Origin: a virus
Lineage: Duplodnaviria > Caudoviricetes
IMG/VR virus record: IMGVR_UViG_3300047440_000118
Location: 1 to 62,483 of that record
DNA: 62,483 bases
Direction: 5' to 3' (one strand)
Translations under genes and position numbers: made by a program
Shown: positions 1,045 to 55,916 of the stretch, in pieces
How positions within the stretch are numbered: the stretch's first letter is position 1
Layout: each line of letters starts with the position of its first letter
Notes under the pieces: generated by a model
What the model was told of the DNA's origin: nothing
The model's input: only the letters and a program-made list of their open reading frames with translations
The model's database searches: none

Positions 1045-3035
1045 GCGACTACGCCGCGTTCCTGGCATCGAAGGCGCCGGCCGACGCGCCGAGCGGCCTG
1101 ACCATCGTGCCGCCCCTGTGTCCCGCCCTCAAGCCGTTCCAGGCGGCGATCACGGCATGGGCTTTGCGCCGAGGACGCGCGGCGATCTTCGCCGGGACCG
1201 GACTCGGAAAGACCCTGATGCAGTTGGAATGGGCGAACAACGTCACGGAACACACCGGCCTTCCCGTGCTGATCCTTTGCCCGTTGGCCGTCGCCGAGCA
1301 GACCGTCGCCGAGGCGGACAAGTGGGGCATCCCTGGCGTGGCCTACGCGGCGGACCAATCGCAAGCGGTGACGCCCATGGTCGTGACGAATTACGAACGC
1401 TTCGAGAAGTTCGACATCTCGCGGTTCGTCGGGATCGTGCTTGACGAGTCGGGCATCATCAAGAGCCACGACGGCGCGACCCGCAAGCTGTTGACCGAGG
1501 CGTGTCGCGATGTGCCGTGGCGGCTGTGCTGCACCGCGACGCCGAGTCCGAACGACTACACCGAGTTGGGTCAGCACTCCGAGTTCCTTGGTGTCATGGA
1601 CGCGAAGGAGATGCTCGCGATGTTCTTCGTCCATGACGGTTCGATCCGCGCGAACGACGCGACACAGGGCAACGACGGATGGCGGATGAAGCGACACGCG
1701 GCGGCTGACTTCTGGCGCTGGCTGGCGTCATGGAGCGTGATGGTTCGCCACCCGCGCGACCTTGGCTTTGACGAACCGGGTTATGACCTCCCGCCGCTCA
1801 ATCTGCATCAGGTCACGGTCGCGGCCGAATACAAACCCACGGCCGGCGAGTTGTTTCCGATGCTGGCATCGACGCTATCGCAACGGATTGGTGTGCGGCG
1901 GGACACGGCGGCTGATCGGATTTCCCATGCTGTAAATATAATTTGTAACCCGGACCACTTTCGTTCTAAATTGCCACCATGCTATCAGACGAAGCAAAGG
2001 AACGACGAAAGGCCGCCGCTCGCGAGCGATACGCCACGGACCCAACCCGCAAACAGGCGGTCAAAGACGCCGCTCTCAAAAGTAGACGAACCGACGCGGG
2101 TAAAACCTACATGCGAGCCTATTACGCCGCTCACAAGATCAATTGGAACAAGAGAACCCAAGAGCAAAGAGATTCTTACAACGCAAAACGCAGGGAAAAA
2201 TACGCCTCTGATCCAGAATTCAGAAAGAAACTCATCGAGCGGGCAAAATCTGTTCCCAGCGGCGCCCCTGAAGAAAAACGAAAACGGCGTCTCAAAGACA
2301 GTTTCGGACTATCAATTGAAGAACATGATTTCATGCTCACCAAACAGGGGTGGGGATGCGGAATCTGTGGGCGAGAACATAGCGATACCACAGGTAGAAG
2401 GTTGGCCGTCGATCACTGCCACCGAACCGGGAACGTCCGAGGTCTTCTCTGCGGTCGGTGCAATAGCGGACTCGGACAATTCGCCGATAGCGAAGAACTC
2501 CTCCGAAAAGCGATCGAATACCTTAATCGTCCACGATCCGGAATCATGGGTAGTTTGGTGCAACCTAAACAGCGAACAAGACGCCCTGGAAAAAAAGTTA
2601 GGTGATAAATGCCTATCGGTGTTTGGCTCGCTACCTTCTCATGAGAAGGTCCGGCGGATTGGCCGATGGATGAATGGGGATAGGCCGATTTTGCTTTCTA
2701 AACCGTCGATTTGCGGCCATGGGTTGAATCTACAAAGATGCCACCGTATGCTTTTCGTTGGTCTGACCGACAGCTTCGAGCAGGTCTATCAGGCCATCCG
2801 GCGCTGCTGGCGCTTCGGTCAGACCCGACCCGTCGAGGTGTATTTCGTCGCGTCCGAACTCGAAGGCAACGTCGTCGCCAACCTGAAACGCAAAGAGGCG
2901 GCGTTTGAGTTGATGCTTGATTCGATGTCAATTCACATGACGGACCTGATGCGCGAGAACGTGATCGGTGGCCGCAACGCGACGGTCATTCAATCGGCGA
3001 ACAAGAGGATGGAACTCCCCGCATGGATCAACTGA
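1041..3035 (+). CDS. SNF2/SF2-type DNA helicase with ~200-aa internal insertion
   Basis: Walker A GTGLGKT, Walker B VLDES, motif III TATP, C-terminal GHGLNLQ and QAIRRCWRFGQ; low-complexity insert between the RecA domains. Confidence 0.9.
   Translation: MSDYAAFLASKAPADAPSGLTIVPPLCPALKPFQAAITAWALRRGRAAIFAGTGLGKTLMQLEWANNVTEHTGLPVLILCPLAVAEQTVAEADKWGIPGVAYAADQSQAVTPMVVTNYERFEKFDISRFVGIVLDESGIIKSHDGATRKLLTEACRDVPWRLCCTATPSPNDYTELGQHSEFLGVMDAKEMLAMFFVHDGSIRANDATQGNDGWRMKRHAAADFWRWLASWSVMVRHPRDLGFDEPGYDLPPLNLHQVTVAAEYKPTAGELFPMLASTLSQRIGVRRDTAADRISHAVNIICNPDHFRSKLPPCYQTKQRNDERPPLASDTPRTQPANRRSKTPLSKVDEPTRVKPTCEPITPLTRSIGTREPKSKEILTTQNAGKNTPLIQNSERNSSSGQNLFPAAPLKKNENGVSKTVSDYQLKNMISCSPNRGGDAESVGENIAIPQVEGWPSITATEPGTSEVFSAVGAIADSDNSPIAKNSSEKRSNTLIVHDPESWVVWCNLNSEQDALEKKLGDKCLSVFGSLPSHEKVRRIGRWMNGDRPILLSKPSICGHGLNLQRCHRMLFVGLTDSFEQVYQAIRRCWRFGQTRPVEVYFVASELEGNVVANLKRKEAAFELMLDSMSIHMTDLMRENVIGGRNATVIQSANKRMELPAWIN
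1979..2605 (+). mobile_element. Endonuclease VII-family putative homing endonuclease encoded in an alternative frame inside the helicase gene
   Basis: CGICG...LAVDHCHRTGNVRGLLCGRCNSGLGQF...AIEYL is the EndoVII signature; basic helical N-terminus; region is AT-richer than its flanks. Confidence 0.9.
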
Positions 3036-4105
3036 CGAACTTAGGCGCGATGCCGCTCATCATGGATCAGGCGTCGGGCGATAACTTCCACATCTGGAAC
3101 GATGATTGCATCGCGGTGATGAAAGGCATCCCAAACGACTCCATTCATATGGCGATATGGTCGCCGCCGTTTTGCTCCCTCTACGTGTTCAGCGACGATC
3201 CGCGCGACGTGTCTAACAACCGGAATGACGCGGTGTTTTTCGATCACTATCGGTTCGTGTTGGCCGAGGTCTTCCGCATCATCAAGCCGGGGCGGCTTAT
3301 CTCGATCCATTGCATGAACCTGCCGACCTCGATCACACGGGACGGCTTCATTGGGATGCGTGATTTTCGCGGCGACAACATCCGGCTTTGTCAGGATGTG
3401 GGGTTCATCTACCACTCCGAGGTCGCTATCCGTAAAGATCCCGTGAGCGCGATGCAGCGCACGAAGGCCATCGGTCTATTGCACAAGCAGGTCGTGAAGG
3501 ACTCCGCGCTGAGCCGGATGGCCATCGCCGATTACATCGTGACGATGCGCAAACCCGGCGAGAACGATAAGCCGATCAGCGGCATCTTCGAGACCTATCA
3601 CGGCGACGACATGACGGACGCCGAACTGACCGCGTATGCCAACGCCAACTATCAGCCGGGCGGCAACCGCTCGCGCGAGGAAAACAAGTCGATCCACATT
3701 TGGCAGCGATATGCCGAGCCGATCTGGACGGACATAAACCAGTCCGACGTTCTCTCCCATCGCGTGGCGCGGGCGGAACACGATGAACGGCACATCAGTC
3801 CGCTCCAACTGACGCCCATTCGCCGCTGTCTGGACCTGTGGACCAATCCCGGAGACGTGGTGTTCTCGCCGTTCGCCGGCATCGGTTCGGTGGGCTACAT
3901 CGCGTTGGAGATGGGCCGGCGGTTCTGTGGCGCGGAGTTGAAGGCGTCTTACTTCCGTCAGGCCGCGTTCAATTTGCGGTTGGCCGAGCGGATGAAGAAC
4001 GACGGCACGCTATTCGATGCCGCTATGATGGCGGATCAATTCGATGAGGCTGACGAACCCGACGAACTTGAAATAGCCGAGGGAGGGCTGTTCGGTGGCG
4101 AGTAA
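3023..4105 (+). CDS. site-specific DNA methyltransferase (N4-C/N6-A family, beta order)
   Basis: Catalytic WSPPF motif N-terminal, SAM-binding FSPFAGIGS C-terminal. Confidence 0.9.
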   Translation: MDQLTNLGAMPLIMDQASGDNFHIWNDDCIAVMKGIPNDSIHMAIWSPPFCSLYVFSDDPRDVSNNRNDAVFFDHYRFVLAEVFRIIKPGRLISIHCMNLPTSITRDGFIGMRDFRGDNIRLCQDVGFIYHSEVAIRKDPVSAMQRTKAIGLLHKQVVKDSALSRMAIADYIVTMRKPGENDKPISGIFETYHGDDMTDAELTAYANANYQPGGNRSREENKSIHIWQRYAEPIWTDINQSDVLSHRVARAEHDERHISPLQLTPIRRCLDLWTNPGDVVFSPFAGIGSVGYIALEMGRRFCGAELKASYFRQAAFNLRLAERMKNDGTLFDAAMMADQFDEADEPDELEIAEGGLFGGE

Positions 4106-4433
4106 ACTGCATCCCGGCGAGTTCGACTGTTACGCCAAAGCCGAACCCGATGAGCCACTGTTCACGTTGCTCGCACGGGACCAGGACGCCGCGACCGTCG
4201 TCAAGCTATGGGCATTTCTGCGAAAACAGCAGATCGAACTCGGCATCCGTCCCGAGTCCGATCGCGCGCAGGTATCCGAGGCGATGCGTTGCGCGACCGA
4301 GATGGAGATATGGCACCGCGCGCATCGTGTCCGCCAGCAGGTCGCCGAGATCGAGTTTGATGATCGCGGCATTCCGACGACGGGCCAGCACGCACGCAAG
4401 GATCGAAACAGCACAAGCGGGGCGTTGGACTGA
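4095..4433 (+). CDS. conserved phage hypothetical protein
   Basis: FDCYAKAEPDEPLFTLLARD motif; translationally coupled to neighbours. Confidence 0.6.
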   Translation: MASKLHPGEFDCYAKAEPDEPLFTLLARDQDAATVVKLWAFLRKQQIELGIRPESDRAQVSEAMRCATEMEIWHRAHRVRQQVAEIEFDDRGIPTTGQHARKDRNSTSGALD

Positions 4434-4618
4434 TGAGCGAATGGCAACCGATCGAAACGGCGCCGATGGATGGTCGCACGGTCCTGGTTTGGGCATCGCC
4501 GTATGACGATTTGCCCGGTTTCCAGACGACCGCCAGGTATCACCCTGACGCGGGATGGTGTGTTGATGAACTGCGTAAGGCGACGCACTGGATGCCGCTA
4601 CCGGAACCGCCGCCGTGA
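4433..4618 (+). CDS. DUF551-like phage protein
   Basis: WQPIETAP...THWMPLPEPP. Confidence 0.8.
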   Translation: MSEWQPIETAPMDGRTVLVWASPYDDLPGFQTTARYHPDAGWCVDELRKATHWMPLPEPPP

Positions 4619-4965
4619 CCCGCCTGCTTGTTTGCGGCGGTCGCGATTACTCTGATTACTGGACCGTGCACGAGGTTCTCGACGGCTTCCACAAGGCCAC
4701 GCCGGTCACATGCCTGATCGAGGGCGGCGCGTTGGGTGCCGATCGGTTCGCCCGCGTTTGGGCGGAGCGCAACGGCGTTCCCGTTCAGACATTCAACGCG
4801 AATTGGGAACGATACGGCAAGCGCGCGGGACCAATGCGGAATTGGGACATGCTCATGGACGGCAAACCCGATCGCGTCATCGCATTCCCTGGAACGTCGG
4901 GGACCGCCAACATGGTCTATCAGGCCAACGTGGCCGGCGTGCCCGTGACGGAGATTATCGAATGA
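4615..4965 (+). CDS. DUF2493/YspA-like SLOG family protein
   Basis: LLVCGGRDY, IEGGALGAD, AGPMRN, VIAFPG motifs. Confidence 0.85.
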   Translation: MTRLLVCGGRDYSDYWTVHEVLDGFHKATPVTCLIEGGALGADRFARVWAERNGVPVQTFNANWERYGKRAGPMRNWDMLMDGKPDRVIAFPGTSGTANMVYQANVAGVPVTEIIE

Positions 4966-5329: not shown

Positions 5330-5607
5330 CGGTGAACCTCGACGCCATCTTTGACCTACCGCTCCCCGGTCGCCTCAAGCTGATCCTGATCGACCTCGCG
5401 CGGTTGAGCGACGTGGATGGTTTCGTGCGCGTCAAGACCCGTGACATCGCGCACCACACCCAATGCAACCCCGATAACGTGGCGCACGGTCTCGTGACGA
5501 TGTGCGATCGAGGCTACCTTAAAGCGGACCCGTTCAACCGCAACGGCGTCGTCCGCTCGTGGCGCGTCGATGAGAGGTTCCGCTCGCGCGGGGGTGTCCT
5601 GGGATGA
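5326..5607 (+). CDS. winged-HTH-like protein
   Basis: KLILIDLA...IAHHTQC...LVTMCDRGYL resembles N-terminal wHTH domains of phage replication proteins. Confidence 0.5.
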   Translation: MTVNLDAIFDLPLPGRLKLILIDLARLSDVDGFVRVKTRDIAHHTQCNPDNVAHGLVTMCDRGYLKADPFNRNGVVRSWRVDERFRSRGGVLG

Positions 5608-5996
5608 CCGTCAAGGGCGCCGTCTGGTATGCCGATGGTCACGTCGCGCAGAGCCATCATCTGCCGTGGACAGCCTCCGAGGACGTGATCCTGGGGCGTG
5701 GCTTCATCGACCGCGACCTCGAAGGCAATGCGTTGCATCGCTGGTGTTCCGCGCACGGTCTGCACCGTTCGGCCGGCGCGATCGACCGGCGGCTGGTGGA
5801 GTTATCGTTCTTCGATTCGAAGGTGCCAGTGAAGCACTACCCGGTCGGGCGCGGCCAGGAACGCGGCACGATGGTCAACGGCGACTTCGCCAAACAGGCC
5901 AGGGCATCCGCCGCCGCCGAACTGCGCAATCAGATCCGGCTCGCGAAACTGGAGGCAGTCGCTGGCGTGCCGCCATTCAAGCCAAAGGACGTTTGA
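5604..5996 (+). CDS. hypothetical protein
   Basis: Coupled to both neighbours. Confidence 0.5.
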   Translation: MTVKGAVWYADGHVAQSHHLPWTASEDVILGRGFIDRDLEGNALHRWCSAHGLHRSAGAIDRRLVELSFFDSKVPVKHYPVGRGQERGTMVNGDFAKQARASAAAELRNQIRLAKLEAVAGVPPFKPKDV

Positions 5997-6691
5997 TGCT
6001 CAACCACTGGCAGACGCCCACGATCAATGACCGCATCACCGCGCTGCACGCGGCCGGCGTGTCCTATCGCCAGATGCCCGAGCGCATCTGGTCCGAGTTC
6101 CGCGTGCGCATCACGAAAGGTATGGCTCTGCGCCGCGCCCGCACGCTTGGCATCACGTCGAGCGAAACGACGACGCCACGGCGACCCGCGATCGAGACGA
6201 CCGAACCCGGCGATATCCCCGCCTGGCGCACGCCTGAAGCCGACGCGCTGTTGCGCGTGCATTGGCACGACGGTCGCAGCCAGGCATCCATCGCGCGGCT
6301 TTTCGGCGTAAGCGAAGACGCCATCGATCGGCGGCGCAAGGCGCTTGATTTGCAGCCGCGTCCGAAACCTGAACTCCCGCCCAAGCCAGAGAAGCCATTG
6401 CCCGTGATCGTGCTCGCGCCACCGCCGGTCATCGCCCCGCTACCGCCCGCCGTGGTGGCGCGTGAGCCTGACCCAGGGCCTTGCGACGAGGTGGACCCGT
6501 CAAGAGAGGCGACGGTAGAGTCCACGTCCGTCATGGCGCTCCCCAAGGCCAGGGAATGCGTGTTCCCGATGTGGGCCACGAATGAGCGACCGACGCACGT
6601 CTACTGCTGTGAGCGGGTCTCGGATGGCATCTACTGCGAGGCGCACGCGGGGGTTTGCTTCACACCCAATCCGATCAGGAGACACCGATGA
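5996..6691 (+). CDS. gcrA: GcrA-like regulator with two HTH units
   Basis: Two HTH-like segments, Pro-rich linker, C-terminal CVFPMW...YCC...YCEAH matching the GcrA C-terminal domain. Confidence 0.7.
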   Translation: MLNHWQTPTINDRITALHAAGVSYRQMPERIWSEFRVRITKGMALRRARTLGITSSETTTPRRPAIETTEPGDIPAWRTPEADALLRVHWHDGRSQASIARLFGVSEDAIDRRRKALDLQPRPKPELPPKPEKPLPVIVLAPPPVIAPLPPAVVAREPDPGPCDEVDPSREATVESTSVMALPKARECVFPMWATNERPTHVYCCERVSDGIYCEAHAGVCFTPNPIRRHR

Positions 6692-41468: not shown

Positions 41469-42530
41469 TCAGAAGTAACCAGGTCCGCCGAAGCCCGTGA
41501 CCCAGGCCCCGGAAGATGATTTCGCACTGATAACATTGTATCCGAGTACGACGATGCCCTGTTGGCCGATCTGCCCGAGCGGCACCAGCGAGTGGAAGCC
41601 CGACCAGTCCATCGCGGCGTCCTCGCTGATGTAGAATGTCGTGTATTTGCAGTTGATGAAGAACATGTTGCCGACCGGGCAGAAGTGGTCGGCGAAGATC
41701 GGCACACCGGCGATGTTGATGTTCGGGAACGATGAGCGGATGTCGGTATCAAGGTTGTAGTTGCCGTTGGGTTGGATGCGGACCTGTTCGACGCCGATGA
41801 TGTCGTTGTTCAGGACAGCGTAGTCGGCCGGGTTCATGATACCCGCCGTTGGCGCCTCGCCGCCCGCCGAATCGGTGATCTTGGCGATCAGCGTGGACAT
41901 CGCCTTGCGGTTCCACCCGAGCGTGGCCGTGGTGAAATTGGTGTTCCACGACGACGGGTTGCCCGCGTTGATGAGTTGGCCCTTGAACGCCGAGTTGCCC
42001 GCCGCCAACCGGTTGATGCCGCCGTAAGTGGGCAGGTTCGTTCCGTCATCGAAGGCGTCCGCGAGCGAGTTGGGGAACTGCGGCGTGTTGCCGCTTGACG
42101 AGAGATACAGCAGCCGCGCGACGTTCTGCCGTGTCGTGGCGTAAACGTCGTTCATGCGGGCCTTGAGCAGGCTGATGACGGTATCGGTCGCCTGAAGCAC
42201 CACCTCGCCGAATGGCAACGGCACCGGAACAACCCAGAACGCGAGGTTCCACTGTCCGTTCTGAATCGCGGGGATCGGGACGGGCGCATTGAAGCCGCCG
42301 CCGTAATTGGTGAACTGCCCCTGGACCATGTTCTGGCCCTGCATCGGGATCGTCACCTGATTGAGGCCGCCAGCGGCGCGCTGCGCGTTGCCCCACAAGA
42401 AGAACAGCCCCGGCGAGGCGAAGTAGATTTGCACGAACAACTTTCGCACGAAGGCGCGCTGCACGACCGCCGATAACTCGTTGAACGCCGGCCCGGCGGC
42501 CGGGGCGACTCCTAAGCCGGCGAGAGCCAT
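41469..42530 (-). CDS. major capsid protein
   Basis: 353 aa after scaffold; YGGINR, IAGVPIFADHFCP motifs typical of HK97-fold coats. Confidence 0.8.
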   Translation of the reverse strand: MALAGLGVAPAAGPAFNELSAVVQRAFVRKLFVQIYFASPGLFFLWGNAQRAAGGLNQVTIPMQGQNMVQGQFTNYGGGFNAPVPIPAIQNGQWNLAFWVVPVPLPFGEVVLQATDTVISLLKARMNDVYATTRQNVARLLYLSSSGNTPQFPNSLADAFDDGTNLPTYGGINRLAAGNSAFKGQLINAGNPSSWNTNFTTATLGWNRKAMSTLIAKITDSAGGEAPTAGIMNPADYAVLNNDIIGVEQVRIQPNGNYNLDTDIRSSFPNINIAGVPIFADHFCPVGNMFFINCKYTTFYISEDAAMDWSGFHSLVPLGQIGQQGIVVLGYNVISAKSSSGAWVTGFGGPGYF

Positions 42531-42542
42531 CTATCTGTTCCC

Positions 42543-43139
42543 TTAACGGTTGGCGCGGGCGTCGGCGAGTGCCGCGCGAATTTCACGGTCCACAAGGCTC
42601 TCATCGACGAGGCCACCGGGACCGCCGGACTTCATCAGATCCTGAACGTAGGTGTCTTCCTTGTCGGCGTTGCCGCCACCGAACAGACCGAACATCCCGC
42701 CGCTCGTGGTGGACGCGGGCGGTGCCGGGTTGCGGGCCTGCCAGGCATCGGCGGCGATGGACAGATCCGCGATGCCGTTTTCCTCGGCGAACGTCTTCAC
42801 GGCCTCGATGCCGGCCGCGCGCCAACCGGCCGAACGCAACTGCGCGGCCTGGCCTTCCCACTTGGCGTTGAACTTTTCCATCGTCTCGCGTTCGGCGGCG
42901 AGACGGTCACGTTCGGCGAGTTCGGCCCGCAGCTTGTTCAACTCGCCGTGAACCTGCGTCACCGCTTCATTGATCGGGGCCGCCTGGTCGATTTCGGGGA
43001 TCGAGACGTTGGGGTTCACCACCTTGCGCGCCTGCAACAGCATTTTGCGCGAGACGGGGTTGTTCATCATCTGCTGGACGACGGAAGTCACCCCGGCGGC
43101 GGCGTTGTAGTCGGCTTCCTCAACCTCGATCCGTGGCAT
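42543..43139 (-). CDS. capsid scaffolding protein
   Basis: Charged helical protein directly upstream of capsid gene. Confidence 0.6.
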   Translation of the reverse strand: MPRIEVEEADYNAAAGVTSVVQQMMNNPVSRKMLLQARKVVNPNVSIPEIDQAAPINEAVTQVHGELNKLRAELAERDRLAAERETMEKFNAKWEGQAAQLRSAGWRAAGIEAVKTFAEENGIADLSIAADAWQARNPAPPASTTSGGMFGLFGGGNADKEDTYVQDLMKSGGPGGLVDESLVDREIRAALADARANR

Positions 43140-43146
43140 GGTGCGA

Positions 43147-43329
43147 TCAGCCTCCGCGCCCGTTGCCCGCGACGTGAGTCACGTTCATATCGGTCGCCTT
43201 GTTGGCATCGGGGATGTGCGACTTGCGCCCGCCGATGTCGTTCTGTTCCATGTCGACGCGCACGATCTGGCCGTCGTTTTTCGGAACCTTGCTGGTCGGG
43301 TCTTGAAAAATCGAGCCGCTGACTGCCAT
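43147..43329 (-). CDS. small head-module protein
   Basis: AGGAG RBS; 60 aa. Confidence 0.55.
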   Translation of the reverse strand: MAVSGSIFQDPTSKVPKNDGQIVRVDMEQNDIGGRKSHIPDANKATDMNVTHVAGNGRGG

Positions 43330-43340
43330 TTTCTGAACTC

Positions 43341-43790
43341 CTACGCCCCAGGGGGCGGCATGGGGGGTTTCGGGGCGGCACCACCGGGCGGCATTCCACC
43401 AGGAGGCGCACCACCTCCGGCGGCACCCATGGCGGCTTGATGCGGCGCCATTTGACTTTGCTTCATCGCCATGCCCTTGAGGGCATCGGACGGCGGCGCA
43501 CCAGCGGGAACGTGCTTGCCGAGAAGCTTGATCGCGGAGGCGAGGTCTTGCCCAAACGGAGTCGATCCGCCGACCTTTGACAGCGCCATCGCCATCGCAT
43601 CAACGAGAGCGCCCGCGATCTTTTGCCCTTGCGCAACGAGGCCGAGATTTTGACTCGGCTGCGTCATCGGACTGCTGCCGATCGGTGGCGCACCACCACC
43701 GGGCGGACTGCCGGGCGAAGGACCGCCACCCCCCGGAGGGGGAGGTGAAGCACCCCCAGCGCCGGGGGGTGGTGGCATTGAACCGGACAA
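43341..43790 (-). CDS. Pro/Gly-rich low-complexity protein
   Basis: PPPPG tails around a helical core. Confidence 0.6.
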   Translation of the reverse strand: MSGSMPPPPGAGGASPPPPGGGGPSPGSPPGGGAPPIGSSPMTQPSQNLGLVAQGQKIAGALVDAMAMALSKVGGSTPFGQDLASAIKLLGKHVPAGAPPSDALKGMAMKQSQMAPHQAAMGAAGGGAPPGGMPPGGAAPKPPMPPPGA

Positions 43791-43796
43791 AGCGCC

Positions 43797-43838
43797 TCAG
43801 CGCCGTCCGTGCTTACGCCGTCTGTGACGAATGTTCAT
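43797..43838 (-). CDS. Arg-rich micropeptide 3 (MNIRHRRRKHGRR)
   Basis: CAGGAG 6 nt before ATG; shares motif with two upstream micropeptides. Confidence 0.65.
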   Translation of the reverse strand: MNIRHRRRKHGRR

Positions 43839-43850
43839 TTTCATCTCCTG

Positions 43851-43892
43851 TCAGTAACGCCTGCCTTTGCGGCGGCGATTACGGTTGCTCAT
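43851..43892 (-). CDS. Arg-rich micropeptide 2 (MSNRNRRRKGRRY)
   Basis: AAGGAG 6 nt before ATG. Confidence 0.7.
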   Translation of the reverse strand: MSNRNRRRKGRRY

Positions 43893-43921
43893 GAGGGTCT
43901 CCTTGGAGGGAGCCTCCGGAA

Positions 43922-43978
43922 TTACTTCCGGCGGCCCTTACGGCGGCGCGCGCGAGCGGCCTTATCGGTCGGGATCAT
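43922..43978 (-). CDS. Arg-rich micropeptide 1 (MIPTDKAARARRRKGRRK)
   Basis: AAGGAG 6 nt before ATG. Confidence 0.7.
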   Translation of the reverse strand: MIPTDKAARARRRKGRRK

Positions 43979-44108
43979 CGTTCTCTCCTTTGCCCCCGCG
44001 AGATGCAGGTGACGGGGAGACCGTGCGAACCCAGGATAAAAAATAGCAACTGGTTGAAATTGTGCGGAAAACCGTCTAACACCATGCAACCGCATGATAG
44101 GGTGCCGC

Positions 44109-44297
44109 ATGGAAGCGTCGATGTCCCGAAGGATAGGATCAAAAGAGGTCTGCGACCGGCTACAGAAGTCATACGACTGGTTGAGAAAGACCAGAAAAGT
44201 GCCGGGGGCGGGACCGCCTTGCTACCGGATCGGCGGACGCTACCAATACCCCGTGAACGAATTCGAGGTTTGGCTTGAAAAGCAAAGATTCGAGTAG
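44109..44297 (+). CDS. AlpA/Xis-like HTH DNA-binding protein
   Basis: SKEVCDRL...WLRK...GPPCYRIGGRYQY...EVWLE. Confidence 0.75.
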   Translation: MEASMSRRIGSKEVCDRLQKSYDWLRKTRKVPGAGPPCYRIGGRYQYPVNEFEVWLEKQRFE

Positions 44298-44304
44298 TTT
44301 TCGG

Positions 44305-45036
44305 TCACATTTCCTCGGCTTCGACCTTAATCCCCGACTCCGCGAGGCGTTTCGCGGGCGCGCACAGAATGTTTTGCGGGTCCATCTTAAAAAACGAGTA
44401 ATTCAGCCCGTCAAAACACGATTTCAGCGCCAAAACGTCGCTCAAAAAGAACTCGCACCAAACCCACGGCTGAAATTCAACCAAACAGCGCCTCGCGCCG
44501 GTCAAAACCTCGAATTCATGGCCCTCAACGTCGATTTTCAGCAGATCGAGGCGACCGAATTGCTGTGAGTCCAACGTCGCGACCTCGACGCGATCCATCG
44601 ACGGATATGTTTCGTCACGAAACGAGACCAGACCGAAGTCCTGCGGCTTTGAGTAGTCGATCGCGGGCATTTTCTTCATCTCGAAGCAGTTCCCGAGGCC
44701 GTGATGGTGCGGGATCAGGTTCGGGAGGTCATTCAACAACGCCGTGCCGCACAGCGCCTGGTAGAATGGCTTTTGAATCTCGAAACTGTGAACGACGCCG
44801 TCCCTCGCTTTGACCGCCCTCGCCAGCGGCACGCTGATCAACCCATGGCTCGCGCCCGCGTCCACGATCACGCAACCGTCCGGCAGCGTCGAGGCCATGC
44901 CCACGAGTGCGGCGATCTCGGACTCAATATGAGTCCGGCCGGTTTTGACGATGTGATCCGCGACGAAGCTGCAAAACCGATTGACGATGAACCGGCCGTG
45001 AACGCTGTCCAACACGATCCAGGGCGAGACGGTCAT
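44305..45036 (-). CDS. FkbM family methyltransferase
   Basis: IVDAGASHG, SFE, LDLLKIDVEGHEFEVLTGA. Confidence 0.9.
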   Translation of the reverse strand: MTVSPWIVLDSVHGRFIVNRFCSFVADHIVKTGRTHIESEIAALVGMASTLPDGCVIVDAGASHGLISVPLARAVKARDGVVHSFEIQKPFYQALCGTALLNDLPNLIPHHHGLGNCFEMKKMPAIDYSKPQDFGLVSFRDETYPSMDRVEVATLDSQQFGRLDLLKIDVEGHEFEVLTGARRCLVEFQPWVWCEFFLSDVLALKSCFDGLNYSFFKMDPQNILCAPAKRLAESGIKVEAEEM

Positions 45037-45039
45037 TCG

Positions 45040-46812
45040 CTACCGCTTTCTCGCCCCCGTTATGCCTTTTTCCATCGCGTGAGCGTAACCTTCCGGATCA
45101 ACGCGCTTCAATTCCTCCATCTGCTGTTTCTGAGCGGCTTGTTTGGCGTGATAGCGTTGCAGGATTTTTTCTTTGTGCTGCAACGGGAGGTCTTCGATCA
45201 GCGTGTCGCCCTCGACGATGCCAAGTTTGAAAGCGCCAATCAGCAAACTTTGATGTTCGTCACTAAATATCGGGCTGCTTGTGTGGCCGTCGACCGTGAC
45301 TCGCCGGTCGTCCGGAATATCCGTCAGGAGGAAGCCTGTTTCCTCCATTTTCTCCGGGTCTGTCCAAAACTTTCTGCCGTCCTTCGCCTGCATCAAACTC
45401 AGGCGCAGATCGGCGGCCTTCGCGCACTGTCTTTCAATCAACAAGCTGTCATCTTTTAGTCGACTGCTCGCGACTTTCATCAATGGGTTGGCTTGCACGC
45501 CCGATCGAACACCGGATTCGCCTTTCCCGGACAACATATTGTCGAAGCCGCTGATTGAGTCGATGATCCCGATCAGTTTATCAATGATTTGCAGCGTTTC
45601 CGGCGGGATTTTCGGCGTGAGATCGTTGATGTTGCCGCCCGGCCCGAGATTGACCCATCCCGACGCCTTCATTGAGGCGTAAGTTTCATCGGTCAGACCA
45701 TCGCCGGTCACCGCGAGGATTTTATCGACCTGTAGGCCGTAGAGCGTGCGCAGATCGGCCATCGTTTGGCTCAAAAAATCTTGCGGCGCCATAACGTCCG
45801 TCAGTTCCGAGCGTCCCCAGATATTCCCGTGCTGTTGATTGGCCTGGATGAGCGTGTAGGGGTGCAAGCCGCTGTCCTGGCCCTGGATCAGCAGGTTGCC
45901 GATCTTGAAGACCGGCGCGATGAGGATATCCGGTTCGATAATTTGGATCGTTGAGTAATCGGAACCATGCCAAACCCAGATTTCATGGAACGTCACCGAT
46001 GGCGCCGACGGGTCGGGACGCGCGCCGTCATAAGCGCCTGTCTGACTGAGAGAGACGACGCCGCCGGGGATCGGCTTGGACAGTGACTCGAACTGAAGCG
46101 GCGAGGACGATAGCACCGGATGGTTGAACGACTGTTCTCCCGCTCCTGGCCCGGCAGCGTTGGCTTTGATCCGCGCGAACAACTCCTTGGCGTCCGGTCT
46201 CTGCCAGATGCGGCGCCAGACTTCGGGCAGCGTGATCGTCGAGGTCTCCACCATCGCCGGCTGTTCGTCGAGGTCGTCGAGGTCGGGGCGGTAGACACCG
46301 AACTGCCACGGCATGATGAGACCGGAGCGGTATTCCGGCAGGCGGTTCTCGCCGGAGACGACCGGCCATTGCTTGAGGATCGACGCGCCGTATTTCAACG
46401 ACTCGAACACGCCTTGAGCGAACTGCACGTCGGTATTGGTGCGTTCCCATGAGCGGCTGAGAAGCCGGGAGACGACGCGGGATTGCAGCGATACCTTGGC
46501 GTCGTAGTCGCCTTCAAAGTCGAGCGCGAAACGAATGTCCGTTGGTGAATACAGCATCGCCGCGCGACGATCGAGCAACGCGAACATGAGGTTGCACATC
46601 GATCGGGTTGTATTGAACCGCCCCGCCTCAACGAAGTCGGCATACGCGCGATATGTCGCCTGGCGCTGTCCGACGTTCGAGCGGCAGATCTCGATCAGTT
46701 CATTGGCGATGCGGATGATGCCTTTGTCGTCGTCGGGCAGACCCCACAGCGCCTCGGGAGGCGAGTAGGCGCCACGGGTTTTGAAGCGGACGACTTCGGC
46801 GGAACTGGCCAT
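45040..46812 (-). CDS. portal protein
   Basis: 590 aa between terminase and head genes; WGRSE...Q and ISG...G..E.GVRSG patterns of podoviral portals. Confidence 0.75.
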   Translation of the reverse strand: MASSAEVVRFKTRGAYSPPEALWGLPDDDKGIIRIANELIEICRSNVGQRQATYRAYADFVEAGRFNTTRSMCNLMFALLDRRAAMLYSPTDIRFALDFEGDYDAKVSLQSRVVSRLLSRSWERTNTDVQFAQGVFESLKYGASILKQWPVVSGENRLPEYRSGLIMPWQFGVYRPDLDDLDEQPAMVETSTITLPEVWRRIWQRPDAKELFARIKANAAGPGAGEQSFNHPVLSSSPLQFESLSKPIPGGVVSLSQTGAYDGARPDPSAPSVTFHEIWVWHGSDYSTIQIIEPDILIAPVFKIGNLLIQGQDSGLHPYTLIQANQQHGNIWGRSELTDVMAPQDFLSQTMADLRTLYGLQVDKILAVTGDGLTDETYASMKASGWVNLGPGGNINDLTPKIPPETLQIIDKLIGIIDSISGFDNMLSGKGESGVRSGVQANPLMKVASSRLKDDSLLIERQCAKAADLRLSLMQAKDGRKFWTDPEKMEETGFLLTDIPDDRRVTVDGHTSSPIFSDEHQSLLIGAFKLGIVEGDTLIEDLPLQHKEKILQRYHAKQAAQKQQMEELKRVDPEGYAHAMEKGITGARKR

Positions 46813-54588: not shown

Positions 54589-55518
54589 CTAGACACGATT
54601 GCCGCCGGAACGATCCACTTCCCTCGCGCGCGGCAACCGACGCGGAGATGGAACCGACCCAGACCTATCCAGCAAGTGGCGGACGGAAGAAGCGTGCCAC
54701 CTGGTTCCGCCACGAGGCGTCCTCTCCCCCATCTTCTCCAACATCGCCGCGATTTCCGTGAACGTCCTGTCTGGTCCGCTCAACAACATCCCTCGAACCA
54801 ACCCAACCAACCGCTCCGAATTGGACGCGGGCATCGCCCGACCCAACAACAACTCCGACGCCAACCCCTCCCGAACCAACAACCTCACCGAACGTCGCAA
54901 CCGCTCAACCGACCATCCCCCACCATCCTCATTCAACGCCCGAGCCACGTCACCCCACGTCGTCGTTGGACGCAGTCTCTGGACGGTCGGTAGCCACGCC
55001 TTGCTCCCATCAACAACTCGCCCGGTCAACGTCGCCGACCGAGACGCCTGGACCTTGGCGATCTCGTCGGCATCACGCGAGCGCAAGCCGGGATTGCCTC
55101 CGACTCGACCTTGAGACCGAGCAACCCGCAACCCGACCCGAGTCCGCTCAGCAATCAAAGAACGCTCCAACTGAGCCACGGCGCCCAACACCTGCAACGT
55201 GAACATCCCTTGCGCCGTGCTGGTGTCCACTGGATCACGCAAGCTGCGAAAGAAACACCCGCGCTTGCGTAAGTCCTCGATCACAGCCAGCAAATGAACA
55301 ACCGACCTCGCCAACCGATCCAACCGAACCACGACCAATGTTTCCCCACGAACCATCCCCTTCAACAACTTCGCCAACACCGGACGACCGGCATCGCCGC
55401 CACTCGCCTTCTCCTCCAGGATCACGACACACCCAGCCGCCCGCAAATCCTCAACCTGACCATCCATCTCCTGATCAACGGTCGAAACCCGAGCATACCC
55501 TATGAAACGTCCCGCCAT
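54589..55518 (-). CDS. serine recombinase (resolvase/invertase family) with extended C-terminal DNA-binding region
   Basis: IGYARVST, EKASG, RLDRLARS, AQLERSLIAERT...G. Confidence 0.93.
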   Translation of the reverse strand: MAGRFIGYARVSTVDQEMDGQVEDLRAAGCVVILEEKASGGDAGRPVLAKLLKGMVRGETLVVVRLDRLARSVVHLLAVIEDLRKRGCFFRSLRDPVDTSTAQGMFTLQVLGAVAQLERSLIAERTRVGLRVARSQGRVGGNPGLRSRDADEIAKVQASRSATLTGRVVDGSKAWLPTVQRLRPTTTWGDVARALNEDGGGWSVERLRRSVRLLVREGLASELLLGRAMPASNSERLVGLVRGMLLSGPDRTFTEIAAMLEKMGERTPRGGTRWHASSVRHLLDRSGSVPSPRRLPRAREVDRSGGNRV

Positions 55519-55916
55519 CCTCGTTGCTCCCAACTCAACACAAAACGTCCGTTTGGAGGTCCATCATAGATTGTCGGTTTCGGGATGCAACAGAGAACCG
55601 GGAAATTCTGGATTTTCTTTGGGGGAAGAAAGGGTGTGCGTGCCACGGTTCCAGCCCATCGCCGTCCCGGTGCCGCGCGGCCGAGCCGCGAGCCTGCCGC
55701 GAGGCGGGTTCGGGGCGCAGGCATAGGAAAGCGGTGGAAGTCCGAGAGATACAGTTCAATACACGACATCAATCGCCCGATTTATATCGCGTCCAATACT
55801 CAAGCCGTTGATATTGCTCACTCAACCGCGTGGCCTGTGAGGCGAGGTCGAATAGACTCGCCAGATCGACGCAGACGCGCCAAATACCGGGTATGAGGGC
55901 GTCCGCCAGAGCCGAG

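Follow-up and report, generated by a model that had tools for sequence, protein, structure and literature searches.

Ahead of the head genes of a tailed phage, three arginine-rich open reading frames (ORFs) of only 13 to 18 amino acids lie in tandem on the minus strand. Are reading frames this short real genes, and if so, what do such strongly basic peptides do beside the portal and capsid genes? We addressed these questions in the window, that is, the whole 62,483-nucleotide stretch of Caudoviricetes DNA analyzed here (IMG/VR record IMGVR_UViG_3300047440_000118), and in its relatives.

The micro-ORFs and their surroundings

A first-pass annotation had described three minus-strand ORFs, each with AGGAG exactly 6 nt ahead of its ATG, and an RRRK(H)GRR core common to all three but written in different codons. 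Both points were confirmed on the sequence. The features of the locus are as follows.

43922..43978, minus strand: micro-ORF1, MIPTDKAARARRRKGRRK, 18 aa, net charge +8, stop TAA
43851..43892, minus strand: micro-ORF2, MSNRNRRRKGRRY, 13 aa, net charge +7, stop TGA
43797..43838, minus strand: micro-ORF3, MNIRHRRRKHGRR, 13 aa, net charge +7, stop TGA
43985..43990, minus strand: Shine-Dalgarno (SD) site of micro-ORF1, AAGGAG, ATG 6 nt downstream (AAGGAG-AGAACG)
43899..43904, minus strand: SD site of micro-ORF2, AAGGAG, ATG 6 nt downstream (AAGGAG-ACCCTC)
43845..43849, minus strand: SD site of micro-ORF3, AGGAG, ATG 6 nt downstream (CAGGAG-ATGAAA)
43916..43931, minus strand: hairpin CCGGAA-GUAA-UUCCGG, stem of 6 bp, ORF1 stop codon within the loop
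43979..44093, no strand assigned: AT-richer gap, bounded by the micro-ORFs and a divergent ORF on the plus strand, GC 53.9%, conserved in the closest relatives (L001-L003)
45040..46812, minus strand: portal protein; the portal annotated in MW202753 is 28% identical (E = 2e-56)
43341..43778, minus strand: P/G-rich gene, 145 aa, always next after the micro-ORF(s), starting 18 nt past the ORF3 stop
43147..43329, minus strand: 60-aa head-module gene, conserved within the window clade
42543..43139, minus strand: scaffold-like acidic protein, 198 aa, pI 4.9, homologous to the pre-capsid gene of MW202753 (E = 3e-8)
41469..42530, minus strand: major capsid protein, phrog_9953 (E = 2.2e-10), annotated as such in MW202753 and MW202825

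The codons of the basic core read CGC CGC CGT AAG GGC CGC CGG in ORF1, CGC CGC CGC AAA GGC AGG CGT in ORF2, and AGA CGG CGT AAG CAC GGA CGG in ORF3, so that the window's own peptides contain KGR and HGR, not an exact Q/RGR. ORF3 has an extra ATG two codons upstream, immediately 3' of AGGAG. An in-frame ATG upstream of ORF1 would, if used, extend its product to 62 aa; since a 1-nt indel breaks this extension in the closest relatives, the 18-aa product is the conserved form. An RNA fold of positions 43760 to 44010 was no better than those of shuffled sequences (z = -1.21).

As the first-pass annotation had it, the micro-ORFs stand ahead of the head genes: on the same strand, they are followed in order by the P/G-rich, 60-aa, scaffold-like, and major capsid genes. 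The genome with these micro-ORFs is that of a double-stranded DNA (dsDNA) phage, with portal and terminase genes present. The P/G-rich gene of the window lacks its own SD site. It is weakly homologous to its positional counterpart in MW202753 (E = 0.002), and its relatives in the protein atlas were uncharacterized phage clusters only. Searches of PHROGs and Pfam gave no match for the portal-sized, P-rich, 60-aa, and scaffold-like proteins. Upstream of the micro-ORFs, the promoter-like gap proposed at 44030 to 44100 is indeed AT-richer, with a GC content of 43.7% versus 61.9% across the window. The only sigma-70-like match found in the gap, at 44121..44094 on the minus strand, agrees at 9 of 12 positions (chance expectation, 0.3), and the gap at 43979..44093 likely holds one or more promoters.

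Micro-genes or chance reading frames

In this GC-rich DNA, short Arg/Lys-rich ORFs are common, and a lax filter found 37 of them in the window, 17 on the minus strand and 20 on the plus strand. This abundance is what favors the view that the three ORFs are not genes, being either short ORFs that arose by chance in GC-rich intergenic DNA or a noncoding element that is conserved and only by accident open. A strict filter (ATG start, 9 to 18 aa, K+R content of at least 45%, and an SD core 4 to 13 nt upstream) gave a different picture. Across the whole window it returned these three ORFs and no others; across the window plus 77 related loci (L001-L077; 824,596 bases in total) all 89 ORFs that it returned were on the gene strand, with 0 antisense. 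In MW202753, a complete genome of 35.6 kb, the only two strict-filter ORFs are both at the equivalent site. Separately, Arg-rich ORFs about 400 nt ahead of the capsid gene in seven loci proved to lie inside the scaffold gene in another frame, and we treated them as by-products of purine-rich coding sequence.

The same micro-ORFs and ribosome-binding sites were then sought at homologous head modules. An ORF of the same kind, 9 to 21 aa long and with an SD site, lies between the portal gene and the head assembly genes in 171 of 173 informative distinct relatives, extending to relatives with 30 to 38% capsid identity. In the first set (L001-L077), 74 of 77 loci pass the filter and L038 carries an 18-aa version; the DNA at that position is absent from L011 and L023, which are uninformative, so that the first set stands at 75 of 75 informative loci. 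For the MW202753 clade the corresponding count is 63 of 65 informative loci, and for a third, more diverse set it is 67 of 68. With duplicates removed, the ATG form is present in 169 of 174 distinct loci, and two further loci have GTG starts. The position is constant: the portal gene lies on one side and the P-rich, scaffold, and capsid genes on the other, and the homology of these genes was checked across clades. Micro-ORFs are wholly absent from two loci, L148 and L150, and are thus dispensable at least in that lineage. Nonetheless, the presence of the same micro-gene in nearly all relatives examined indicates a real gene family.

Copy number varies: among the 174 distinct loci, one copy is found in 86, two in 79, and three in 4. 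Two copies prevail in the ~35-kb clade and one in the ~62- to 66-kb clade, and copy number does not track genome size. The description of three tandem copies therefore holds for the window but is rare elsewhere, and the closest relatives lack ORF2, their SD site there being mutated to AATGAA; relative to them, ORF2 is an additional copy found in the window phage only. The ORF1 peptide is identical in these relatives, with two synonymous changes, while ORF3 differs from theirs by four synonymous codon changes (including AGA to CGT and CGG to AGG) and a single replacement, H to Y. The suspicion that gene callers would miss the family was borne out as well. In MW202753 (GenBank) and a second deposited phage the micro-ORF is present but unannotated, and spurious opposite-strand ORFs were called there instead. 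When 50,697 phage records were searched with the capsid and portal proteins, the matches were two metagenomic genomes only, with no cultured relative.

The peptides form a family of free products of 9 to 21 residues, mostly 13 or 14, with net charges of +4 to +9. Arg and Lys make up about 60% of residues and Gly about 10%, whereas acidic and hydrophobic residues are nearly nil. Arg and Lys swap freely at the same positions: the window clade has 42% R and 17% K, the other clade 31% K and 29% R, and some members are almost all Lys. Of the peptides in two sets, 46 of 63 and 37 of 56 contain the [RKH]GR[RK] motif, compared to 10.5 and 5.3 in composition-preserving shuffles, and among close pairs pN/pS is 0.30 (65 pairs) and 0.24 (600 pairs), although these counts overstate independence because the sequences are related. 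The pN/pS values agree with the protein-level selection that had been suspected from codon differences in the window alone. An exact RGR is present in 22/63 and 20/56 peptides, and [QR]GR gives the same counts (22/63 and 20/56); the C-terminal residue is R or K in 50/63 and 54/56, and a hydrophobic residue or Cys falls among the last five positions in 5/63 and 15/56. A single peptide is encoded by 12 different DNAs, and between the window and L001 codons switch between AGA and CGT and between CGG and AGG. As read from the sequences, selection keeps the charge, the length, and the [R/K/H]-G-R-[R/K] core, not the exact sequence.

Codon usage sets the micro-ORFs apart from the long ORFs of the same loci. 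In the window clade, the micro-ORFs use CGT (25% versus 14%), GGT (34.5% versus 18%), and TAA stops (66% versus 33%) more often, and in the MW202753 clade they use more CGT plus CGC (89% versus 59%) and GGT (69% versus 46%). Furthermore, their SD sites are the strongest in the head module. The codon bias, the strong SD sites, and the one to three copies per locus fit an abundant peptide.

Taken together, the strand counts, the pN/pS values, and the conservation across loci bring the view that these ORFs are not genes close to refuted. Besides the 89-to-0 strand asymmetry, the start codon, SD site, and stop are preserved in 171 of 173 informative loci over a GC range of 44% to 62%, the changes are mostly synonymous, and a noncoding element finds no counterpart in an Rfam family or a significant fold; we consider this view highly improbable. 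The three ORFs are very probably real, translated micro-genes.

Possible functions of the peptides

Selection on charge, length, and core rather than on exact sequence suggests that the peptide most likely binds, and acts through, a polyanion. Our preferred reading, which we hold tentatively and by analogy, is that the peptides are polycationic DNA counter-ions linked to packaging, like protein J of the Microviridae or adenovirus mu. Large molar amounts of peptide would be made late in infection, alongside the portal and head proteins, and tandem copies, three in the window, would raise the dose. The peptide would bind phage DNA both by phosphate neutralization and by AT-hook-like insertion of Gly-Arg into the minor groove, would serve as a counter-ion during or after packaging, and would probably end in the filled head, as a tailed-phage counterpart of protein J, mu, and protamine-like proteins. 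Here we infer the abundance, the DNA target, and the packaging into the head. Because free DNA is condensed, and ejection pressure lowered, by strong polycations, large packaged amounts would carry a cost. No fusion of the basic peptide to a neighboring head protein was seen among the loci scanned.

A more ambitious version of this proposal, a "phage protamine," we regard as doubtful as a whole. It would be a caller-invisible gene of 10 to 20 codons whose +7 peptide, at thousands of copies per particle, enters the head with the dsDNA and sets packaging density, pressure, and stability; the peptide may also be co-injected, shielding the entering DNA, and its level may be set via the adjacent RNA hairpins.

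The polyanion could instead be RNA. The peptide might be an arginine-rich-motif-like hairpin ligand, exerting autogenous control of mRNA, terminator, or processing, or a tiny basic rRNA-associated peptide that alters late translation; its composition resembles both arginine-rich RNA-binding motifs and tiny basic ribosomal peptides. Of 47 unique sequences from the MW202753 clade, 44 have a hairpin downstream of the first micro-ORF, its stem varying but staying complementary, and a second, 4-bp helix there shows compensatory changes at 3 pairs; in the window, the GUAA-loop hairpin contains the ORF1 stop. However, hairpins are not universal, most window-clade loci having no room for one. The complete genome MW202753 contains a single instance of the hairpin-2 motif, which indicates that there is no dispersed set of target sites and rules out a boxB-like arrangement. 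An Rfam search of positions 43300 to 44400 gave no match. Moreover, the 13-aa peptide is a basic stretch alone, with no effector part, and the genes lie in the head module, not in an early or regulatory region. Searches of NCBIfam and PDB sequences with the 62-aa upstream-extended ORF1, the 28-aa stop-to-stop ORF2 frame, and a 21-aa relative, rather than the bare peptides, gave 0 matches at E values up to 10, a result that weighs little for such short queries. RNA binding thus described appears unlikely to us.

A different possibility is that the micro-ORF acts mainly in cis, loading ribosomes and passing them by termination-reinitiation to the P-rich gene or tuning read-through of a downstream hairpin, while the peptide would do little or nothing in trans. 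The distance from the micro-ORF stop to the next ATG is -1 to 12 nt in 47 of 65 window-clade loci, and in the window and several relatives the P-rich gene has no SD site of its own; given this proximity, a coupling role is real or at least possible. In addition, the K-G pair, encoded by AAG-GGN, supplies an SD-like AAGGG ahead of the next start, and after the ORF in one subclade a small hairpin and a GC-rich, T-run-bearing stem can be made out by eye. In the window clade, then, ribosomes apparently also reach the next gene by way of the last micro-ORF. On the other hand, the MW202753-clade ORFs lie 70 to 130 nt from the next gene, which has its own SD site, with hairpins and a TTGACA-type promoter-like site in between, and their peptides are still conserved; owing to this separation, a pure leader role cannot be the conserved function. 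Purifying selection on amino acids, a motif frequency above that of shuffles, and the kept length and charge are all unneeded for coupling, the free interchange of Arg and Lys differs from the regulatory codons of classical attenuation leaders, and the window region, as noted above, folds no better than shuffles. That cis action is the main role is therefore distinctly unlikely.

We consider it very unlikely that the peptides are polycations directed at the host, which would compact the host nucleoid or shut it off, neutralize an anionic defense molecule, or act on the anionic envelope near lysis, all without entering the capsid. The charge and likely abundance would suit such a role, and the natural absence from two loci fits an accessory gene; but accessory host-takeover genes usually move and turn over, whereas the micro-ORFs keep their place in the portal-to-capsid block down to 30 to 38% capsid identity. 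The peptides are neither amphipathic nor hydrophobic, unlike membrane-active peptides, and are not encoded in the lysis region, the holin and peptidase genes of MW202753 being 19 kb away.

Whatever their function, the micro-ORFs offer a clean test case for micro-gene discovery, combining strand asymmetry, synonymous turnover, codon bias, and variable copy number. Genes of 10 to 20 codons are systematically missing from phage annotation, and this family, though conserved almost throughout a large lineage of environmental phages that ranges from soil to fresh water, is absent from both deposited annotations. Current thinking on packaging and ejection considers DNA, small ions, and polyamines. 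If the peptides are packaged counter-ions, the physics of these processes in tailed phages would need a protein component, and there would be convergence with microvirus protein J and adenovirus core peptides. The "phage protamine," if it is true, would give the Caudoviricetes their first genetically encoded peptide counter-ion system, with genes among the shortest conserved protein-coding genes known. The family is amenable to simple, cheap experiments with synthetic peptides.

Comparison with known systems

Literature searches, covering listings and abstracts, found no report of such peptides from tailed phages, and passages of PMC3185693 held nothing relevant. Among better-known short genes, the attenuation leaders of trp, his, and pheA share with the micro-ORFs a length of 10 to 20 codons, a strong ribosome-binding site, a place at the head of an operon, and a run of one type of residue. 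Unlike these leaders, the micro-ORFs have interchangeable Arg and Lys, use common rather than rare codons, and are not upstream leaders in one clade; apart from the terminator-like stem of one subclade, recognized by eye, no terminator was called near the ORFs, and the window fold gave the z score of -1.21 reported above. The tiny basic ribosomal peptides eL41, bTHX, and actinobacterial bL37 and bS22 are similar in size and composition but differ in that the gene context here is virion assembly.

In arginine-rich-motif systems such as lambda N with boxB and human immunodeficiency virus (HIV) Tat with TAR, a further domain contacts the transcription machinery. The micro-peptides resemble these proteins in having an Arg-rich stretch of 10 to 20 residues and, in some clades, hairpins adjoining the genes. 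In contrast, their whole product is 9 to 21 aa with no effector domain, the hairpins are neither universal nor dispersed, and the genes belong to a late head module.

The basic-Gly-Arg-basic core flanked by Lys or Arg is reminiscent of the AT-hook (R-G-R-P) and of the Q/RGR motif of HMGA, H-NS, and Lsr2; a passage of PMC4466236 describes both motifs as inserting into the DNA minor groove. Pro never follows Gly-Arg in the micro-peptides (GRP in 0 of 119), and they thus depart from the canonical AT-hook. They are also free peptides of 9 to 21 aa, whereas AT-hook-type motifs are embedded in folded or long proteins.

Adenovirus mu is a short arginine-rich polycation of the same kind. The micro-peptides share this character with mu and with protamine-like proteins of the P6.9 type; unlike these proteins of eukaryotic viruses, which are made as, or cut from, larger precursors, they are the primary product of a 10- to 19-codon tailed-phage gene. 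In eukaryotic dsDNA viruses, short arginine-rich polycations such as baculovirus P6.9 condense or neutralize dsDNA for encapsidation, according to a section of PMC6163548.

Protein J of the Microviridae is the other close parallel. The micro-peptides differ from J, a protein of single-stranded DNA, T=1 phages, in coming from portal-bearing dsDNA phages, with no detectable sequence relation. The J gene adjoins scaffold and capsid genes, as the micro-ORFs do, and the protein has a hydrophobic C-terminal part that anchors it to the coat protein; the micro-peptides are shorter, mostly end in Arg or Lys, and have no hydrophobic tail. As stated in a portion of PMC13386984, protein J coats the replicative-form DNA of phiX174 and has a guiding role for the packaged genome. 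The micro-peptides resemble J in being very small, highly basic, and phage encoded, and J, by the same portion of that source (PMC13386984), binds the genome and enters the capsid.

Three Arg-rich micro-ORFs ahead of the head genes

The first-pass annotation had claimed three minus-strand micro-ORFs encoding Arg-rich peptides with a shared core. Reading of the coordinates and start signals from the window confirmed all three:

43978..43922, minus strand: micro-ORF1, 18 aa, net charge +8
43892..43851, minus strand: micro-ORF2, 13 aa, net charge +7
43838..43797, minus strand: micro-ORF3, 13 aa, net charge +7

The pattern AAGGAG-6 nt-ATG occurs three times within 194 bases of this strand, and the peptides have an RRRK(H)GRR core in common, with codons that differ between copies. 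A longer, 62-aa reading of micro-ORF1 was rejected, as a 1-nt indel breaks it in the window's nearest relatives. Next on this strand come a 145-aa P/G-rich gene (the P-rich gene), a gene of 60 aa, an acidic scaffold-like gene, and finally the major capsid gene. On the upstream side are an FkbM-type methyltransferase, the portal gene, a zinc-ribbon protein of 215 aa, and the large terminase. Genes for an SNF2-type helicase, a DNA methylase, a GcrA-like protein, an HNH nuclease, and a serine recombinase are found elsewhere in the window, which is a virus record. The stretch upstream of the micro-ORFs has a GC content of 43.7%, compared to 61.9% for the window, and contains one promoter-like match. 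Further features are as follows:

44094-44297, plus strand: 67-aa ORF divergent from the micro-ORFs, with an HTH_17 (excisionase-type) match (E = 6.2e-5; 23.6 bits, under the curated cut-off of 27)
44305-45036, minus strand: FkbM-family methyltransferase (PF05050, E = 8.8e-13), inserted between the portal gene and the micro-ORFs
54589-55533, minus strand: serine recombinase (PF00239, E = 3.5e-37)
5570-6691, plus strand: GcrA-like regulator
3023-4105, plus strand: N6/N4 DNA methylase

The last three genes suggest that the phage is temperate and may disturb the control of cell-cycle methylation in its host. In one relative (L038), a similar reversed small HTH-like ORF was read by eye just upstream of the micro-ORF; given this ORF and the opposite-strand HTH-type ORF in the window, the AT-rich gap may be a divergent promoter region. 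In relatives, the FkbM slot has variable inserts, and micro-ORF and capsid gene are 1.2 to 2.8 kb apart. The P-rich protein starts at residue 38 in the protein atlas, the gene caller having taken an internal Met (window 43667-43778, minus strand). Since the Pro/Gly/Gln-rich N-terminal part stays open in relatives from the Met directly after the micro-ORF, the longer form is probably the real one.

Conservation, selection, and translation signals

With the window's capsid protein as the query, 77 viral contigs of 58-88% identity were retrieved. In 74 of the 77, a script located a micro-ORF that starts with ATG or GTG, is preceded by a Shine-Dalgarno site, and lies 1.2-2.8 kb ahead of the capsid gene; L038 has an 18-aa version that falls below the filter, and the L011 and L023 contigs stop short of the position and are uninformative. 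The micro-ORF is thus present in 75/75 informative loci of this set. MW202753 and MW202825, deposited metagenomic phages of ~35 kb and 44% GC, have capsid and portal proteins only 26-32% identical to the window's, and each carries two 13-aa ORFs with AGGAG sites at the equivalent position. Among the 85 loci around these two (the ~35-kb clade), at least one micro-ORF is present in 63 of the 65 with sufficient upstream DNA. A profile search added 77 loci, intermediate lineages among them, and at least one micro-ORF was found in 67/68 informative loci, the exception again being the L038 contig. These counts show that the ORFs and their ribosome-binding sites are conserved in related phages. Flanking genes are also homologous between the two main clades (portal, E = 2e-56; scaffold-like, E = 3e-8; P-rich, E = 0.002).

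After deduplication, 174 distinct loci with at least 1,800 nt upstream remained. By the ATG filter, 86 have one copy, 79 two, 4 (including the window) three, and 5 none; the last comprise two loci with GTG starts, one without the DNA, and two true absences. Two natural variants, L148 and L150, have no micro-ORF between the portal gene and the head genes. In both, a short ORF follows the portal gene, has a basic tail at its end, and abuts a promoter-like TTGACA site; in L148, the next gene lies beyond that site. Deposited annotation of the micro-ORF region reads as follows:

MW202753 (L078), 4380-4678, opposite strand: hypothetical CDS
MW202825 (L079), 3387-3647, opposite strand: hypothetical CDS

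Both are probably spurious calls that mask real micro-genes. Capsid relatives L160, L161, and L162 lie on contigs binned to Acidobacteriota, deltaproteobacterial, and Patescibacteria MAGs, and the latter two loci carry the micro-ORF; because the bins contradict each other, they give no reliable host.

About 70 distinct peptides were collected per main clade. In both clades, the peptides are 9-18 aa long (mode, 13-14) with a net charge of +4 to +9 (median, +7); Arg and Lys make up ~60% and Gly ~10% of residues, and acidic and hydrophobic residues are nearly absent. For same-length pairs with at least 70% nucleotide identity, pN/pS was 0.30 (65 pairs) and 0.24 (600 pairs). When all same-length pairs were taken, it rose to 0.77 and 0.57, indicating that the exact peptide sequence drifts. 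One peptide is encoded by 12 different DNAs. Between the window and its nearest relatives, micro-ORF1 has two synonymous changes and micro-ORF3 has four codons changed synonymously (AGA to CGT and CGG to AGG among them), a single replacement, and a different stop codon, while micro-ORF2 and its ribosome-binding site are missing from these relatives. The low pN/pS in close pairs and the synonymous changes strongly support the protein-level selection proposed in the first-pass annotation. Moreover, an [RKH]-G-R-[RK] core is present in 46/63 and 37/56 peptides, against 10.5 and 5.3 in composition-preserving shuffles; these counts come from related sequences and are not independent events, but the motif holds across both clades. 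Gly-Gly never occurs among the peptides analysed for the motif.

Micro-ORFs use CGT, CGC, and GGT more often than long ORFs of the same loci do, and in the GC-rich clade 66% of them end in TAA versus 33% of long ORFs. Codon and stop bias of this kind is typical of bacterial genes with high expression. Within the head module, the micro-ORFs have the best Shine-Dalgarno sites, and the next gene has none.

Gene arrangement and RNA structure

In the window clade, the distance from the last micro-ORF stop to the P-rich ATG is -1 to 12 nt in 47/65 loci (18 nt in the window). As this distance is short and the P-rich gene has no ribosome-binding site of its own, translational coupling of the two is likely. 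In the ~35-kb clade, the order is portal gene, 54-aa ORF, micro-ORF A, hairpin, second small helix, micro-ORF B, further hairpin, TTGACA-type promoter, and a head gene with its own ribosome-binding site. A terminator scan made no call at these hairpins, which rest on reading and stem comparison. Between micro-ORFs A and B lies a conserved element:

L078 (MW202753), 4437-4520: structured RNA, with equivalents in 46 other unique sequences of the clade

The first hairpin (4-8 bp, directly after the micro-ORF A stop) is present in 44/47 unique sequences, with stems that vary yet stay complementary and loops that are mostly CGCAA or CGAAA. The second helix, GGG-N12-CCC with an invariant TGGCT in the loop, shows compensatory changes at 3/4 pairs and occurs once in the complete MW202753 genome; judged by eye, pairing of its loop with a conserved downstream stretch that contains GGCC is possible.

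Seven loci (L039, L064, L066, L067, L069, L072, and L073) have a small hairpin, a spacer resembling GGAAAAG, and a GC-rich 9-bp stem followed by a T-run, ~65-80 nt past the micro-ORF and before the P-rich gene; by eye, the stem and T-run look like a terminator. The same loci carry a second Arg/Lys-rich ORF (12-25 aa, SD-like site) that lies within the scaffold gene, in a different frame and ~400 nt ahead of the capsid gene, and is kept across the subclade. It probably arises as a by-product of a coding sequence rich in purines.

Candidate functions and comparison with known systems

Altogether, our data identify a micro-gene in the portal-to-capsid block that is conserved, under selection, and equipped with strong translation signals, and we consider the micro-ORFs very probably real genes. 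Our tentative reading of their function, by analogy and short of even odds, is a packaged polycationic counter-ion for phage DNA. The product would be made at high molar output and would bind a polyanion, putatively phage DNA because the genes stand beside packaging and head genes. At 62,483 bp, the genome has some 125,000 phosphate charges; neutralising one-tenth of them would take ~1,800 peptides of charge +7 per particle, several times the capsid-protein copy number, an estimate that fits the expression signals and tandem copies. Several points count against this reading: copy number showed no link to genome size, L148 and L150 are natural deletions, and strong polycations influence how DNA condenses and is ejected.

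An RNA-binding or ribosome-associated peptide is an unlikely alternative, at about half the weight we give the counter-ion. Slightly less probable is a mainly cis-acting coupler or leader: the peptide is kept in both arrangements and the cis context is not, which is why the conserved function should lie in the peptide. A host-directed polycation seems improbable. Chance or a non-coding element is very improbable: although short Arg-rich ORFs are frequent in GC-rich DNA and a lax filter finds 37 in the window, a strict filter (ATG, 9-18 codons, at least 45% Lys+Arg, Shine-Dalgarno core 4-13 nt upstream) leaves only micro-ORF1 to micro-ORF3 there and, over the window and 77 related loci (824,596 bases), yields 89 ORFs on the gene strand, including nested alternative starts and a few inside the scaffold gene, versus 0 on the opposite strand.

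A literature search at abstract level found no earlier description of such peptides, and the family fits none of the known families tested (protein J, canonical AT-hook, N type, and attenuation leaders). N-type regulators have an effector domain and attenuation leaders a single-residue codon run, whereas the micro-ORFs have neither. Adenovirus mu is one analogue. The closest working analogue is microvirus protein J, described as coating DNA and being packaged along with it (PMC13386984); however, the micro-ORF peptides lack its C-terminal anchor. Protamine-like proteins (PMC6163548) are a further analogue. The Gly-Arg core recalls AT-hook and Q/RGR motifs, which are described as lying in the DNA minor groove (PMC4466236), but Pro is absent from the motif, unlike in a canonical AT-hook, and exact Q/RGR occurs in only about a third of peptides. 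By analogy, the family would work most like a viral DNA counter-ion peptide; among these it would be new in being the shortest, in being encoded directly, and in occurring in tailed phages.
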